From positions 1 to 64,000 of the IMG/VR virus record IMGVR_UViG_3300028840_006907: 64,000 nt of DNA. One strand, given 5' to 3'. The notes under the pieces were generated by a model that made no database searches, was not told the origin of the DNA, and saw only the letters and a program-made list of their open reading frames with translations. A program made the position numbers and the translations under genes. Shown here in pieces: positions 18,540 to 52,872 of this stretch. This DNA is from a virus. How positions within the stretch are numbered: position 1 is the stretch's first letter; each line of letters opens with the position of its first letter.

Positions 18540-19607
18540 TTATGGTTTAAATTCTTTATCTATGGCATATTTAATCAATCCAGAGAAATGTTCCAAAACA
18601 TCTGGATATTGAATTGAATTAAATATTTCATGGGATAAATTAGAATTATATTTTTGATTATCTACAGTAATATAAGGAGCGAAAGTTTTACCTACAGTTC
18701 TGTAATATAATTTTTCAAATTTATTTAAATTATTTGGAAATTTATCAACAAATTCAAATTCCTTTACATTTAGCATATTTAAAATAACGGAAAAGTATTC
18801 TTTATGTAATGGAGGATTTGGGTTTATTATATTAAGTTCTGTAAAATCTTCATTGATAGATTTACATATGATTTTAGCAACATAATCTACAGGAACAATA
18901 TTAAGAGTTTCATTTAAATTAATGTGGATTCTAATTGGCATATCCATTTTATATCTATAAAAAAAGTATGCCCAACCATAGAATACATCAAATTTTAAAG
19001 TAATATATAAAGGGAAATCAATTAAACGACCACAGATAACTGAAGGTCGTAATATCTGATAATGAATATTATATTTTTTACAATAACTTGATATATATGT
19101 TTCCATAGTTGATTTAGTTTCTTCATAGGGATTTCTATAAATATTTTTAATTCTATTTACAAATGCTGTACTTATATAAATAAATTTATAAAGTTTTTTA
19201 CTATCGATATTATTTATCAAATTTATAGTTCCCAAATTATTATTTAATAAAAGTTCTTGTTCTGTAGCTTTATCTGTCATTAAATTTGTTGAAGCGGCAC
19301 AATGTATTACTGTCAATTTCTTAGTATCAATATTAGAAATTATATGAAATAATTCTTTACAATTTAAATGACATGGGATAATTTGAAACCTTTCTTTAAG
19401 TATATTTATTGAATATTTCTTTATGAATTCTGGAATATTTTCTGGAGCAAAAATATTTATGCCTCTTTCTATAGGAGTCATATTATTAAAAGGTCTAATT
19501 AATAAAAAAAGTTTAGATGATGAATTATATCTAATAATTTTTTCAAGCAATTCAAAAAAGATATGACTACCTAATAGACCTGTAACGCCTGTAATTAAAT
19601 AATCCAT
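18540..19607 (-). CDS. NAD(P)-binding epimerase/thioester-reductase-like protein
   Basis: N-terminal ITGVTGLLGSH Rossmann motif, YISTAFV, YEETK (YxxxK). Confidence 0.55.
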   Translation of the reverse strand: MDYLITGVTGLLGSHIFFELLEKIIRYNSSSKLFLLIRPFNNMTPIERGINIFAPENIPEFIKKYSINILKERFQIIPCHLNCKELFHIISNIDTKKLTVIHCAASTNLMTDKATEQELLLNNNLGTINLINNIDSKKLYKFIYISTAFVNRIKNIYRNPYEETKSTMETYISSYCKKYNIHYQILRPSVICGRLIDFPLYITLKFDVFYGWAYFFYRYKMDMPIRIHINLNETLNIVPVDYVAKIICKSINEDFTELNIINPNPPLHKEYFSVILNMLNVKEFEFVDKFPNNLNKFEKLYYRTVGKTFAPYITVDNQKYNSNLSHEIFNSIQYPDVLEHFSGLIKYAIDKEFKP

Positions 19608-19651
19608 ATTGAATCCTTTTTAATGGTTATGTGCGATATTGATTTTTTTAT

Positions 19652-23887: not shown

Positions 23888-23903
23888 TATATCCTCCTTA
23901 ATT

Positions 23904-23918
23904 ATTATAAGAGATCTC
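23904..23918 (-). promoter_or_regulatory. GAGATCTC palindrome fused to TATAAT box
   Basis: Minus strand reads GAGATCTCTTATAAT, then AGGAGGA and ATG. Confidence 0.4.
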
Positions 23919-24247
23919 AGATAAAGATTCAATATGAATCTTTTAGAATACATTTAATTATATGATTTTTACATACATACGAAAGGCGTAATGGCAAATG
24001 CTATAAGAAAAATAGCAAGAAGAATGAGGCAGATATCGGGTGATTTCATAACATTTTACTCCTTTAAAAGATAGAACTTTGAATTTTTTGGGGTTTCATT
24101 ATCAAAGAAAGCTATTGCTATAATATCTCCTTTGACAAAGAATTGAGTTGCATTCCTAATATTATTAATATTGAATGTCTTATCTTTCATAAATTCTTGA
24201 AATTCAATCTCGGTCACAAGGGAAAGCTCATTCATATCTAATACCTT

Positions 24248-31838: not shown

Positions 31839-31868
31839 AAAAACCTCCATTATTAATCATTATAAGAG

Positions 31869-31883
31869 ATCTCAGAAAAGGAT
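31869..31883 (-). promoter_or_regulatory. GAGATCTC palindrome fused to TATAAT box
   Basis: Minus strand reads GAGATCTCTTATAAT, then GGAGG and ATG. Confidence 0.4.
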
Positions 31884-31963
31884 TCAAGGAAATTCTTCTA
31901 AGATCTTTTAAATATAAATTATATGTATCTGGAAATATTATAGTTATAGGTAGGAAGAAATAT

Positions 31964-35046: not shown

Positions 35047-35238
35047 TTATTTACTCCTTGTTAAATCCTCAAGCTTTATCCCCAATCCACGTACCTGTTT
35101 AAATAACTCCGGGAAATCTCTCACTATTATAATCCTCGGCTTATCCTCAATCAGCCCATAAGCACTTAGCTTATCTGAACTATATCCTAAATTAACCTGT
35201 AACGATACTTTATCCATATTCTTACCTCCATATAACAT
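35047..35238 (-). CDS. small conserved protein, paralog of 33690-33872
   Basis: About half the residues identical to 33690-33872 product. Confidence 0.55.
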   Translation of the reverse strand: MLYGGKNMDKVSLQVNLGYSSDKLSAYGLIEDKPRIIIVRDFPELFKQVRGLGIKLEDLTRSK

Positions 35239-35740
35239 TATATATACCCAATTACCTTTTTTATCCAGTAATATAACATTTTAATACTATCAAATACCAA
35301 CGTCCTATATGGTGCGTCCGTATTAATCTCTATTAAATCAGTCGTCCTATATCTTTAAACTATGGTCTATATAGTAATAAACACGATCTATAAATCAAAT
35401 AACAATTTTAAGGTAATCCTCTTACTCATCAATATCCATATCTTTATAATAAAAAACCCACACATAGCACCTATAAAAATGTGGAACCCTTTAAGGCATT
35501 TCTTAAGTAACTATGTATGGGCACTGAAAGGGATTTATACAAATCCCATTATTATCTTAATATATTAACTTACTATATGTCTATACCTATAAACATATCC
35601 CCCTATATATTACTAATTAGTAATATGAATGTAATTATCCCTATCCCCTATATCTAATAACCTATAAACTATCCATTAAGTATATCTGTATCCTATCCAT
35701 ATAATAACTCTGTAAGAGAAAATTAATATGTATCAGTATG

Positions 35741-35890
35741 CCCATTACCTTGAATAGAATAATGAGTAAGTCAGTACCAGGAACTATACCATCATGAACT
35801 ATGAACTCGGAACTATGTCAGGGAAAACTTGAGTACTTACCCATTACCTTGAATAGAATAATGGGTAAGTCAATACCAGGAACTATGTCG
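35741..35890. repeat. about 48-bp direct repeat x2 (period 99 bp), each with internal inverted repeat
   Basis: cccattaccttgaatagaataatg(a/g)gtaagtca(g/a)taccaggaactat at 35741 and 35840. Confidence 0.85.
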
Positions 35891-36057
35891 GGAATTTCCA
35901 ACGAGTATTTTGAAAAAATTTATTCTCCCTGCAAAACCCGGAACCGATTTCCTAGTTCCTACAATCATATATTAATAATCTTTTGTTATCTGTATAAGTA
36001 AATTTACACAGGGTAATTGACTGATCAAAGTAAGTTAATGTCTTCCCAAACCGAGTC

Positions 36058-36141
36058 TTTGACTTGGGGAAATTGGTTGTTGACTGTAGAGAAGAATAAT
36101 TTCACTTGCTCATTTGGGTATTTGACTTGGGGAAACTGGTT
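36058..36141. repeat. 21-bp direct repeat x2 (period 63 bp)
   Basis: tttgacttggggaaa(t/c)tggtt at 36058 and 36121. Confidence 0.85.
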
Positions 36142-36511
36142 CCCGACTATCAAAAGTGGGGTTAAAAACGAGGGGGGTTACCCCTAAATTTGATATTTCC
36201 AGACTGGGAACTCAGACAGGGGCGATTCCAGACTGTTTCTGGCCAGACTGGGGGAAAGACCTAAGACGGTCTTAGTCCACTCATCCAAGACCATTGCCAT
36301 TTATCTGATCCGTAGCTCCAGACCTGGAATGACTTGGATAGAATTTTATATGTTACTGCCAGACAGAAAATGATCTTTGAGTCTCCACGTCCCAGGATTT
36401 CCTGGACACCGTGTAATCCACGGAACTCTAGGCTATCGGCTGATTTAATTTCGTTCTGAACTTCTATGGGAAGTTCATTCATGTTTATTTGATCTATACT
36501 TGTGATATGCA

Positions 36512-38017: not shown

Positions 38018-38239
38018 TTACTCCTGGTTATTCTGTACGAGGAATGGGTGAAAACATCCATCTATGTATTGAAGTTTATACTCATCAGTTCCTTCTCTGA
38101 ATACAGTAGGTAAAGTTTCACCTTTATTATTCACATAAGCATTCCCTGTATAGTAATGATGCTTCTTATCAAATGTGAGACCGTATTTCTTACCTATGGC
38201 GGTCAGAGTCCTACGGGCTTTAACAATTTTATTATTCAT
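38018..38239 (-). CDS. hypothetical protein
   Basis: 73-aa ORF. Confidence 0.45.
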   Translation of the reverse strand: MNNKIVKARRTLTAIGKKYGLTFDKKHHYYTGNAYVNNKGETLPTVFREGTDEYKLQYIDGCFHPFLVQNNQE

Positions 38240-38525
38240 TTTCCTTTTTCTCCTTTAAGCTCTTTAATAATAATTCAGCTCTTACACTTTCTTTTAGGAT
38301 CTCTCCATAGTGTTCATGGCCTTCCGGGAATATGAAGTATTGGATAGCTTCTTTCTTGATTGGGCAATCGGCTTCGCCATCTTTTGTGGCTGAATAGAAG
38401 TGGGGATATTGACTATATCCGTTATCCCATTGCAGGGCATAGTATCGGTTAGTCTTTTTTGATTTATATATGTTCTTAAGGAATCCGGTATGACTATATA
38501 CAAATCTTAATTCTTGATAATCCAT
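38232..38525 (-). CDS. hypothetical protein
   Basis: 97-aa ORF preceded by conserved 23-nt leader. Confidence 0.5.
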   Translation of the reverse strand: MDYQELRFVYSHTGFLKNIYKSKKTNRYYALQWDNGYSQYPHFYSATKDGEADCPIKKEAIQYFIFPEGHEHYGEILKESVRAELLLKSLKEKKENE

Positions 38526-38534
38526 ATTGGTTAA

Positions 38535-38557
38535 TCCTTTTTAAGAGATGTCAGATT
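38535..38557 (-). promoter_or_regulatory. conserved 23-nt leader/translation-initiation element (copy 1)
   Basis: Minus strand AATCTGACATCTCTTAAAAAGGA, 10 nt before ATG. Confidence 0.5.
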
Positions 38558-38579
38558 ATAACTTTTAGTTTCTTTTGAT

Positions 38580-38837
38580 TTATATGTTCTTAAGGATATC
38601 AATTAAGTCAGTTAATTCACATTCACAATAAATTGAATAATGTAGACCTTCTGCATCCAAAAAAGTTAATTTGGAATTAATTATTACTAGTTCCTCATAA
38701 TCAAATACATTTACTTTGATAGCGTTACTATCGATATGTTTTGATTTGGTCTTACTTTTATTGATCTCAGTTTTTAATGCTTCTTTAATTTCTTTTTCTA
38801 AATTATTGTATCGATTAAGTAAGTTTTGATATTTCAT
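38580..38837 (-). CDS. hypothetical protein
   Basis: 85-aa ORF preceded by conserved leader. Confidence 0.5.
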   Translation of the reverse strand: MKYQNLLNRYNNLEKEIKEALKTEINKSKTKSKHIDSNAIKVNVFDYEELVIINSKLTFLDAEGLHYSIYCECELTDLIDILKNI

Positions 38838-38843
38838 AATATT

Positions 38844-38866
38844 TCCTTTTTAAGAGATGTCAGATT
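38844..38866 (-). promoter_or_regulatory. conserved 23-nt leader/translation-initiation element (copy 2)
   Basis: Identical 23-mer, 7 nt before ATG. Confidence 0.5.
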
Positions 38867-38871
38867 GTCAT

Positions 38872-39243
38872 TTAATACTGGTTAGTTGTGATAGAGAAAG
38901 AATTATAACAACTACCAAAGACATTTTCGAATCCAGAATGACTAACTAGGTCACTGATTTTAACAGGGAGAGGTAACTTGTTAAATTCATTCTCTGTTAA
39001 TCCCAGGAAACTAAGTAGGTCATTTTTAGAGACCCAATCATATTCTTCCCAAAAATCTATATCAGCATTTACAGTGGCCCAATCAAATACACAATCGTTT
39101 GCTTTTTCTGCAACATTAACTTTATAGTAGAATCGATATTCATTTTCTTTCTTTATAAACTTCCATGCCAGACCGTATTCATAGAGAGATGTACCAAGAT
39201 CTGTATCTGTTCCTTCATATCCTTTGAGTTCTGATAAGTACAT
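38872..39243 (-). CDS. hypothetical protein
   Basis: 123-aa ORF preceded by conserved leader. Confidence 0.5.
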   Translation of the reverse strand: MYLSELKGYEGTDTDLGTSLYEYGLAWKFIKKENEYRFYYKVNVAEKANDCVFDWATVNADIDFWEEYDWVSKNDLLSFLGLTENEFNKLPLPVKISDLVSHSGFENVFGSCYNSFSITTNQY

Positions 39244-39246
39244 AGT

Positions 39247-39498
39247 TTAATCCTTTTTAAGAGATGTCAGATTACAACTTTTAGTTTGTTTAAATTTAAT
39301 GATGAATTGATCAGGGTTATCGAGTCTTACTAGGACAGTACTGGATTCATATTCATATATGATAGCTCCAGACTGTCGTAGGTCGTTCAGTATTTCTGTC
39401 TCTGGGATATTAGTATCTTTAAAGTGATAGATACTATCATTCATACCGGTAGCTCTGGGGAATTTATTATTAGGGTTTTTTGTATATTTTACTGACAT
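39247..39498 (-). CDS. hypothetical protein
   Basis: 83-aa ORF. Confidence 0.45.
   Translation of the reverse strand: MSVKYTKNPNNKFPRATGMNDSIYHFKDTNIPETEILNDLRQSGAIIYEYESSTVLVRLDNPDQFIIKFKQTKSCNLTSLKKD
39251..39273 (-). promoter_or_regulatory. conserved 23-nt leader/translation-initiation element (copy 3)
   Basis: Identical 23-mer, 8 nt before ATG; overlaps last codons of upstream gene. Confidence 0.5.
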
Positions 39499-51572: not shown

Positions 51573-51940
51573 CATGAATAATGAAAAAAGTTTAGTAACT
51601 TTCCGAAGTTTTAAGAAACTTTTTCTTTGACGTTTGTTTTTTGTGGCTTTCATGAGTAATGAAAAAAGTTTAGTAACTTTCCGAAGTTTTAAAAATTTTT
51701 TCTTTCATGTAAACTTTTCCTTGTCTACATGAGTAATGAAAAAAGTTTAGTAACTTTCCGAAGTTTTAAAAATTTTTTCTTTCATGTAAACTTTTCCTTG
51801 TCTACATGAGTAATGAAATTAGTTTGGTAACTTTCCGAAGTTTTAAAAATTTTTTCTTTCATGTAAACTTTTCCTTGTCTACATGAGTAATGAAATTAGT
51901 TTGGTAACTTTCCGGAAAAAATTGTAAAAACGCTATTTTC
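51573..51940. repeat. 77-bp tandem direct repeats, about 4.4 copies
   Basis: Units begin at 51573 (degenerate), 51651, 51728, 51805, 51882 (partial). Confidence 0.95.
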
Positions 51941-52312: not shown

Positions 52313-52370
52313 TGGCGCATATCCTGTTATAGTGGCGCATATTCTATTATAATGGCGCATATTTCAGTTC
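52313..52370. repeat. three direct GTGGCGCATAT boxes at about 20-bp spacing
   Basis: gtggcgcatatcctgttata / gtggcgcatattctattata / atggcgcatatttcagttca. Confidence 0.9.
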
Positions 52371-52397: not shown

Positions 52398-52628
52398 CAG
52401 GGAACAGGGAACTGAGCACAGGGAACTGAGCACAGGGAACCGAGCACAGGGAACCGAGCACAGGGAACTGAGCACAGGGAACTGAGCACAGGGAACTGAG
52501 CACAGGGAACCGAGCACAGGGAACCGAGCACAGGGAACTGAGCACAGGGAACCGAGCACAGGGAACTGAGAACAGGGAACCGAGCACAGGGAACTGAGAA
52601 CAGGGAACTGAGAACAGGGAACCGAGCA
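52398..52628. repeat. 14-bp tandem repeat array, 16 copies, GC-rich
   Basis: CAGGGAAC(T/C)GAGCA with T/C and C/A variants; partial copy then units from 52405. Confidence 0.95.
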
Positions 52629-52872
52629 CCTGTATCTGTGATCTCGGAAAAGTTTCGGGAAAAAAATCGGGAACGGCTCAGGGCTGAGAAATAGGTATGA
52701 ATTTTTTTGGGGTATAATTTTTGGAGTTAAACAGTTGGGGAAATTGGAGTTATCTTATGTGAGGTGATGGGATAGTTTATGGAGGGTGAAAATTTTTTGG
52801 TATAGTTTGATGGAGAAACAGGTATAATACTTATAGGACGGAAAAATTTAAGTCTAATGGTTCGAGGATCTT

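Follow-up and report, generated by a model that had tools for sequence, protein, structure and literature searches.

A 23-nucleotide (nt) sequence, AATCTGACATCTCTTAAAAAGGA, stands directly before three consecutive small genes in a 64,000-nt stretch of viral DNA (IMG/VR virus record IMGVR_UViG_3300028840_006907, positions 1 to 64,000; the window below). Our preferred reading, to which we give a probability of about 0.58, is that this 23-mer stems from the 5' end of the third gene, g97, as a duplicated gene junction whose copies would serve as ordinary ribosome-binding and coupling sites and as recombination repeats. The 23-mer occurs at exactly three sites in the window, all on the minus strand, and a search for further copies, as the initial annotation had suggested, found no fourth site even with 3 mismatches allowed. 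No match was present in 100 shuffled sequences and 0 are expected by chance, so a chance origin of the three copies was rejected. An identical 23-nt leader before three genes was what the initial annotation had described, and it was confirmed: the last base of the 23-mer lies 8, 7, and 10 positions before the A of the ATG of g123 (39243), g85 (38837), and g97 (38525), respectively. The three direct repeats are spaced 407 and 309 bp apart and all fall within 740 bp. When the tandem arrays near 52 kb are excluded, the window holds only four families of dispersed exact repeats of at least 18 nt, of which the 23-mer is one. It is composed of a 15-nt part, AATCTGACATCTCTT, upstream of the Shine-Dalgarno (SD) sequence AAAGGA, and 8 nt of SD context. 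The copies and the genes that they join are as follows.

23-mer copy 1: 39251 to 39273, minus strand; carries the g83 codons for NLTSLKK(D) and the SD sequence AAAGGA of g123.
23-mer copy 2: 38844 to 38866, minus strand; non-coding; follows the g123 stop and precedes the g85 start.
23-mer copy 3: 38535 to 38557, minus strand; between g85 and g97.
g83: 39247 to 39498, minus strand; 83 amino acids (aa), orphan, with copy 1 as its tail.
g123: 38872 to 39243, minus strand; 123 aa, orphan, between copies 1 and 2.
g85: 38580 to 38837, minus strand; 85 aa, orphan, chimera; starts MKYQNL (g97-family-like) and ends with a copy of g97 codons 16 to 20.
g97: 38232 to 38525, minus strand; 97 aa, from a small conserved phage protein family (P0022 to P0030 and P0001), source of the duplicated pieces.

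Each copy spans the end of an upstream frame, NLTSLKK(D/E) and its stop codon, then the SD sequence AAAGGA and the next start. The stop codon of this frame lies 3 nt before the next ATG at copy 1, lies 5 nt before it at copy 3, and overlaps it as ATGA at copy 2. At copy 1, the frame is the tail of g83 (…KFKQTKSCNLTSLKKD followed by the TAA stop, 3 nt ahead of the g123 ATG), in agreement with the earlier observation that one copy encodes the end of the upstream gene. At copy 2, the frame reads NLTSLKKEIL, and its TGA stop overlaps the ATG of g85. Since the SD sequence AAAGGA is supplied with spacers of 7, 6, and 9 nt to the ATG, each copy has the appearance of an ordinary ribosome-binding site with a normal SD-ATG distance and 15 invariant nt ahead of it. 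At the mRNA level, each copy would be the ribosome-binding site (AAAGGA with a 6- to 9-nt spacer) of the downstream cistron, and copy 1 would additionally be a termination-reinitiation coupling site.

The likeness between the junctions extends beyond the 23-mer, in nested steps of 23, 28, and about 57 nt. Between copies 1 and 3 there is no difference over 28 nt (39247 to 39274 and 38531 to 38558) and 89% identity over about 57 nt; their alignment runs past the start codon into the TTATCA of the next gene (score, 33; 95th percentile of shuffles, 13.5). Copy 2 has 23 nt in common with the other copies, followed by a weaker likeness through the ATG and the next five codons (score, 24.5; 95th percentile of shuffles, 13.5). 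Around the invariant 23-mer core lies a larger junction repeat that decays outward. The pieces of this larger repeat are a 34-nt unit that contains the 23-mer (unit Y) and a segment that is also found inside g97 (segment X).

Unit Y at copy 1: 39247 to 39280, minus strand; AAGTTGTAATCTGACATCTCTTAAAAAGGATTAA; 33/34 identical to the copy 3 unit.
Unit Y at copy 3: 38531 to 38564, minus strand; AAGTTATAATCTGACATCTCTTAAAAAGGATTAA; absent from the otherwise matching internal sequence of g97, where the joint reads ACTAA/CC.
Segment X, copy (dupA): 38565 to 38596, minus strand; repeats g97 codons 16 to 27 and forms the last g85 codons and the spacer.
Segment X, original (dupB): 38449 to 38482, minus strand; g97 codons 16 to 27, FLKNIYKSKKTN; ancestral, since it is kept in the g97 family.
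Remnant of X, 18 nt, before copy 1: 39281 to 39298, minus strand; g83 codons …IKFKQT; 15/18 identical to dupA and 14/18 to dupB by hand count.

Apart from one 2-nt TA indel, dupA and dupB are identical at 30 of 32 positions (alignment score, 22.5; 95th percentile of shuffles, 13.5). The second duplicated segment that had been noticed here is therefore real and slightly bigger than first described, pairing 38565 to 38596 with 38449 to 38482. The loss of TA in dupA creates the stop codon of g85; when TA is restored, g85 ends in …ILKNIYKSKETKSYNLTSLKKD and a stop, the same tail as that of g83. Copy 3 is thus non-coding only because of this 2-nt loss. Two of the three copies therefore code, or did so until recently, for a C terminus immediately coupled to the following start. 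Copies 1 and 3 have in common the joint at which the X remnant meets unit Y, ACTAA/AAGTT, so both descend from one rearrangement.

These pieces trace to the 5' end of g97, which alone among the genes here has relatives. A concatenated search of 5.8 billion protein clusters returned a homologue for g97 only, and a profile search extended this to proteins of 78 to 89 residues, with 57 to 74% aa identity, on uncultured phage-like contigs; the family as a whole spans 78 to 97 residues. The family shows two motifs, LQWDNGY and FIFPEGHEHY, that hardly vary, and no Pfam domain is recorded for it. A confident AlphaFold model of g97 (predicted local distance difference test score [pLDDT], 92) has six strands and a long C-terminal helix and gave no significant match to the PDB. 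The genes next to the g97 homologues differ in every contig. The stretch FLKNIYKSK-TNRYY is conserved in the family, so codons 16 to 27 of g97 are the original of segment X and the copy before copy 3 is derived. The sequence TYKSKETKSYN, read in the alternative (restored) frame at copy 3, aligns to positions 19 to 29 of the family profile; g97-family coding homology therefore enters the first 9 nt of unit Y, up to the start of the 23-mer.

A second piece comes from the very start of the gene. When scored with an N-terminal matrix of the family built without the window sequence, the g85 N terminus MKYQNL reached 11.1 bits, the best among 149 other genes of the window, the next reaching 5.7 bits. 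The leader and start of the closest g97 homologue (L005), TTAAAAAGGAA…ATGAAATATCAG and TTAAAAAGGAA…ATGAAATATCA, match copy 2 and the g85 start. By these alignments g85 is a chimera, made up of a g97-family initiation region with six codons, about 70 unrelated codons, and then g97 codons 16 to 20 and beyond. Both the junction before g97 and the gene g85 are built from 5' pieces of a g97-family gene, namely, its ribosome-binding context with the first six codons and its codons 16 to 29.

Two further observations concern leaders. At 19598 to 19625 (minus strand), the leader of the gene at 18540 to 19607 reads TTAAAAAGGATT-CAATATGGATTAT, nearly the same as the 3' half of copy 3 with the g97 start, TTAAAAAGGATTAACCAATATGGATTAT; this gene and g97 both begin MDY, and the leader is perhaps another copy of the g97 initiation region or a chance likeness (nhmmer E value, 0.2). 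In a relative (L001, 50 to 610), one extended SD context, (T)AAA(A)GGGGATA, recurs at five consecutive starts, and two adjacent genes for 33-residue membrane peptides have been duplicated in tandem together with their leaders, which is leader duplication in a simpler form.

The other three genes have no such relatives. In a set of about 15 billion proteins, g83, g123, and g85 each stand as a singleton, nothing useful was found for the flanking genes in PHROGs, Pfam, or PADLOC, and a concatenated query of the neighbouring genes matched only long unrelated proteins. Pairwise Smith-Waterman scores among g56, g83, g123, g85, g97, g73, and g107 were at the level of shuffles. Since g83, g123, g85, and g97 are not detectably related, they were rejected as whole-gene tandem paralogues, and whole-gene tandem duplication is not the explanation for the repeats. 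We also observed that g83 and g123 lie in one reading frame, parted only by TAA ACT (38872 to 39498, minus strand), and that g85 and g97 likewise lie in one reading frame. The 3' end of g123 holds a promoter-like site (38902 to 38930, minus strand), 36 nt upstream of copy 2, that consists of TCGAAA, 17 nt, and the extended -10 element TGTTATAAT; if active, it would place copy 2 in a 5' untranslated region, and promoter-like matches are no commoner here than in shuffles.

Under the duplication reading, a junction composed of an upstream tail, stop, SD sequence, start, and the first codons of the next gene would have been copied three times. Partial tandem duplication, or unequal recombination, at the 5' end of g97 would have given rise to the array, after which the interiors would have been replaced or would have diverged to give the orphan genes. 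In the DNA, the direct repeats would be substrates for homologous recombination, so that the g123 and g85 cassettes could be deleted, duplicated, or swapped, as proposed by analogy with the promoter-early stem-loop (PeSL) cassettes of T4-type phages. The initial annotation had proposed modular duplication of a shared translation-initiation or RNA-binding element. Of this, the modular duplication stands, as a copied junction with pieces traced to the 5' end of g97, and the translation-initiation element stands in the ordinary SD sense. If correct, this reading makes the locus a clear record, on a small scale, of the way in which very large phage genomes build up arrays of orphan genes: a ribosome-binding region and first codons are copied, the copies capture or evolve new coding sequence, and the direct repeats left behind ease the loss, duplication, and exchange of the new cassettes. 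Junction duplication would be a fairly ordinary route by which phage gene arrays grow and are reshuffled.

Several points weigh against this reading. Unrelated gene bodies must fall between the same two g97 pieces more than once, which is awkward for a simple tandem duplication, and there were no strain variants or close relatives in which the gain or loss of a cassette at the repeats could be seen. When the duplication model was extended to the g83 N terminus, an internal segment of g85, the g123 C terminus, and the junction between g56 and g83, nothing was significant against all open reading frames of the window or in the profile search: the likeness of the g123 tail VSHSGFE…TTNQY to YSHTGFL…KTNRYY of g97 fell short of significance, and the resemblances of the g83 N terminus and of the g56-g83 junction, AAAGGATTAAC, were suggestive and likewise not significant. 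The perfection of the core is a further difficulty. Identity in the demonstrably homologous flanks drops to about 80% for copies 1 and 3 and to about 67% for copies 2 and 3 (3' side), and the core is 23/23 in all three. Under uniform divergence, by our own arithmetic on the flank alignments, the probabilities of a 23/23 core are about 6e-3 and about 1e-4. Core identity needs either selection or conversion tracts with the same ends. The 15 nt beyond the SD context in particular call for an explanation; selection would be one, and recent copying or a gene conversion restricted to the core another. Recent copying or gene conversion would be the simplest account of the perfect core; the 15 nt upstream of the SD sequence may be under selection.

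As for the genomic setting of the repeats, the window is AT-rich (about 32% G+C), and from about 22 to 52 kb it carries a long minus-strand run of small, tightly packed genes, nearly all with a strong SD sequence of the AGGAG or GGAGG type. The larger genes, among them those for a DNA methyltransferase, an FtsK-like protein, and an AAA ATPase (<30% identical to known phages), have distant phage homologues only. No DNA similarity of the window to phage or plasmid collections was found, nor did protein searches of viral contigs yield relatives. Exact look-ups of proteins of the window brought back neither the source contig nor strain variants, although three contigs, of which the longest has 469,617 nt, are recorded as carrying proteins of the locus. 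The window is therefore probably part of a huge (about 470 kb) phage-like genome. The stretch from 38.2 to 39.5 kb holds no terminator-like site, and on the minus strand the first such site downstream is at 36171 to 36185; g83, g123, g85, and g97 therefore probably lie inside one long transcription unit, as a single operon. After this terminator-like hairpin, about 1 kb (35220 to 36250, minus strand) is apparently non-coding and holds two 47-nt repeats (35741 to 35787 and 35840 to 35886) that are 96% identical; each contains, by eye, a 12-bp inverted repeat, ACTTACCCATTA…TAATGGGTAAGT, and no Rfam match. Three tandem arrays lie near 52 kb, at 51573 to 51914 (77 nt, 4.4 copies), 52313 to 52363 (20 nt, 2.5 copies), and 52404 to 52629 (14 nt, ACAGGGAACTGAGC, 16 copies). 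They sit at a switch of gene orientation and GC skew and may represent either an origin of replication with iterons or a divergent control region.

Among the alternatives to junction duplication, a start-associated regulatory site survives best, although we consider it unlikely. The 23-mer, as RNA or as DNA, would be recognised by a phage or host factor that coregulates g123, g85, and g97 (a translational repressor or activator, a small RNA, or a stoperator-like DNA binder), and its identity would be kept by selection. The contrast between a perfect core and flanks at 67 to 80% favours such a site, and it is also the one point left in favour of the initial annotation. The identity holds whether the context is coding (copy 1) or non-coding (copies 2 and 3). 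The repeat is also asymmetric, has one orientation, stands directly before starts, and joins an SD sequence to 15 nt that cannot all pair with 16S ribosomal RNA, which is the anatomy of the start-associated sequences of mycobacteriophages (Pope et al. 2011, PMC3203893). However, the three copies lie within 740 bp with none in the other 63 kb, the traceable duplication accounts for them, and no candidate binding factor was identified.

Conserved RNA structure was not detected. RNAalifold gave no consensus pairs for the copies, single-sequence folds were no more stable than shuffles (z-scores, +1.4, +0.85, and -0.4), and Rfam gave 0 matches at gathering thresholds over the whole window; an RNA structure or riboswitch-like element was rejected on these grounds. 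Unusually open initiation regions were also unsupported, since the minimum-free-energy ranks of the three genes (43, 12, and 109 of 150 genes) are average for the window. With no structure, no Rfam family, no other copies in the 64 kb, and average accessibility, there is no positive evidence for the RNA-binding element of the initial annotation.

Sequences from outside the window also speak against a start-associated site. The g97 homologues on other contigs (L001, L005, and L006 to L011) keep the gene behind a leader with a generic AAAGGA-type SD sequence that lacks the distinctive AATCTGACATCTC and with it the 15-nt part, although these relatives are distant (57 to 74% aa identity). The initial annotation had itself stated that a motif confined to these three sites and lacking in relatives that keep the genes would refute its reading; by that standard, a conserved regulatory element is unsupported among distant relatives and in the 64 kb analysed of the ~470-kb genome. 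Scans of three public collections with 20-mers revealed no phage-like locus. There was no match in the viral collection, and there were two loci in the metagenome collection and one in the genome collection; two of these three are the same bacterial ytrA-like gene (L003 and L004), and the remaining match is an unrelated contig end. By our estimate, two distinct 20-mer sequences are about the number expected by chance in such collections, and neither is phage-like. The match from the genome collection lies inside a chromosomal ytrA-type GntR regulator (L004, 5184 to 5558, in an Erysipelothrix metagenome-assembled genome, and L003; …ALTSLKKDYLSELKAL…). The g83/g123 junction of the phage (39225 to 39273) reads NLTSLKKD-stop-TM-YLSELKG; 23 nt are the same in the ytrA-type gene, and the YLSELK codons differ synonymously. 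A 20-mer match is expected by chance, but the adjoining six-residue match is odd and unexplained.

In a stronger form of the same idea, which we regard as quite improbable, the 23-mer would be an operator of the ~470-kb phage, a single-stranded RNA or asymmetric DNA site through which a dedicated phage factor switches the orphan genes jointly, with more copies beyond the window. If selection acts on the 15 nt upstream of the SD sequence, an uncultured huge phage would here possess a start-associated regulatory site, a class of element whose mechanism is not known even in mycobacteriophages, in which it was described.

A relationship to promoters is highly doubtful. Two near-identical promoter cassettes (23898 to 23958 and 31853 to 31913, minus strand), each directly upstream of a gene, read TTGAAT, 17 nt, TATAAT, and then GGAGG and ATG, with a hairpin over the -35 element or the spacer, an architecture like that of PeSL. 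According to this explanation, the repeat would share ancestry with these strong sigma-70-type promoter and stem-loop cassettes and could act as a weak or factor-dependent promoter or as an operator. The cassette spacer with the -10 element has 15 of 17 positions in common with the 23-mer, and the pattern TCTGA[G/C]ATCTCTTA[T/A]AA is found exactly in the three copies and in the spacer and -10 element of both cassettes, on the same strand and just before a gene start; it is expected 0.01 times per window, for a pattern picked post hoc. The cassettes are the second- and third-best non-self matches to a profile of the three copies, but with E values of 0.8 and 3.2 they are not significant. The -10 element of the 23-mer would be TAAAAA, without the final T, and no -35 element stands at the right distance (17 nt). 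Copy 2 fits CTGACA-16-TATTAT, but it alone does so, and the -10 element would overlap the ATG, so that transcription would begin at or inside the start codon. Promoter-like matches in the region number 49, compared with 53.9 in shuffles, and neither consensus nor single folds revealed a stem-loop at the copies.

Least tenable of all is the idea that unit Y (34 nt, AAGTTrTAATCTGACATCTCTTAAAAAGGATTAA) is a miniature mobile insertion at TAA sites that brought in a stop and an SD sequence and so split or created genes: the sequence before g97 does resemble g97 codons 16 to 31 with 34 nt inserted at ACTAA/CC, and in copies 1 and 3 TAA bounds Y at either side, but Y has no terminal inverted repeats, is far shorter than any known autonomous or miniature element, is reduced at copy 2 to 23 nt without TAA bounds, has no other copies in the 64 kb, and aligns over its first 9 nt with g97-family coding sequence (KSY versus KRY), so that its boundary is more likely a recombination joint.

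The junction repeat resembles several known systems in part. The PeSL of T4-type phages combines a strong sigma-70 promoter with a stable stem-loop and occurs about 50 times per genome (Arbiol et al. 2010, PMC2839356; Comeau et al. 2014, PMC4122927), and recombination between such short repeated junction cassettes flanking orphan genes (ORFans) is documented in these phages (PMC2839356, PMC4122927). Like PeSL, the 23-mer repeat is a short junction element that runs from an upstream stop to a downstream SD sequence and start beside small ORFans in a plastic, variable region. Its direct repeats could likewise mediate the deletion, duplication, and exchange of the enclosed genes. Unlike PeSL, it has no credible promoter, no sigma-70 -35 and -10 elements being found inside it, and no stable stem-loop or terminator, and it is present in three adjacent copies only.

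The start-associated sequences (SAS) and extended SAS (ESAS) of Cluster K mycobacteriophages are 13 bp long (GGGATAGGAGCCC), number 11 to 19 copies over half the genome (Pope et al. 2011, PMC3203893), and are conserved across subclusters before different gene families, with an unproven function (PMC3203893). The 23-mer shares with SAS its asymmetry, its single orientation, and its location a few nt upstream of the ATG of non-structural genes. In both, an SD core is joined to positions unable to pair with rRNA, and the stop of the upstream gene can fall inside the repeat. The SAS signature of an asymmetric repeat 3 to 8 nt before starts, with an SD sequence and extra conserved positions, is present here with spacers of 7, 6, and 9 nt. 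Unlike SAS, the repeat has another sequence, three copies in 740 bp, and a visible duplication history. Many dispersed copies were not found within the 64 kb (3 mismatches allowed; nothing significant in a profile search), the repeat is absent from the distant g97 homologues, and the 20-mer scans returned no phage-like locus.

The stoperators of Cluster A mycobacteriophages are 13-bp DNA sites that bind a repressor and number many genome-wide (PMC9283540, PMC6550527). They resemble the 23-mer in being asymmetric repeats in short intergenic space, oriented with transcription. They differ in that no repressor, dispersal, or sequence similarity was seen for the 23-mer, which has three copies in the window. 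The linker sequences proposed at module boundaries in the mosaic genomes of lambdoid phages are short conserved gene-boundary sequences that join unrelated modules and are shared between different phages, whereas the 23-mer repeat was seen within one genome only. The marks of segmental or partial-gene duplication, namely, a common joint, pieces of a neighbouring gene, and identity that decays outward, are all present at this locus. By sequence comparison, then, the repeat appears to be PeSL-like in its genomic role and SAS-like in its position and composition, while being a member of neither family.

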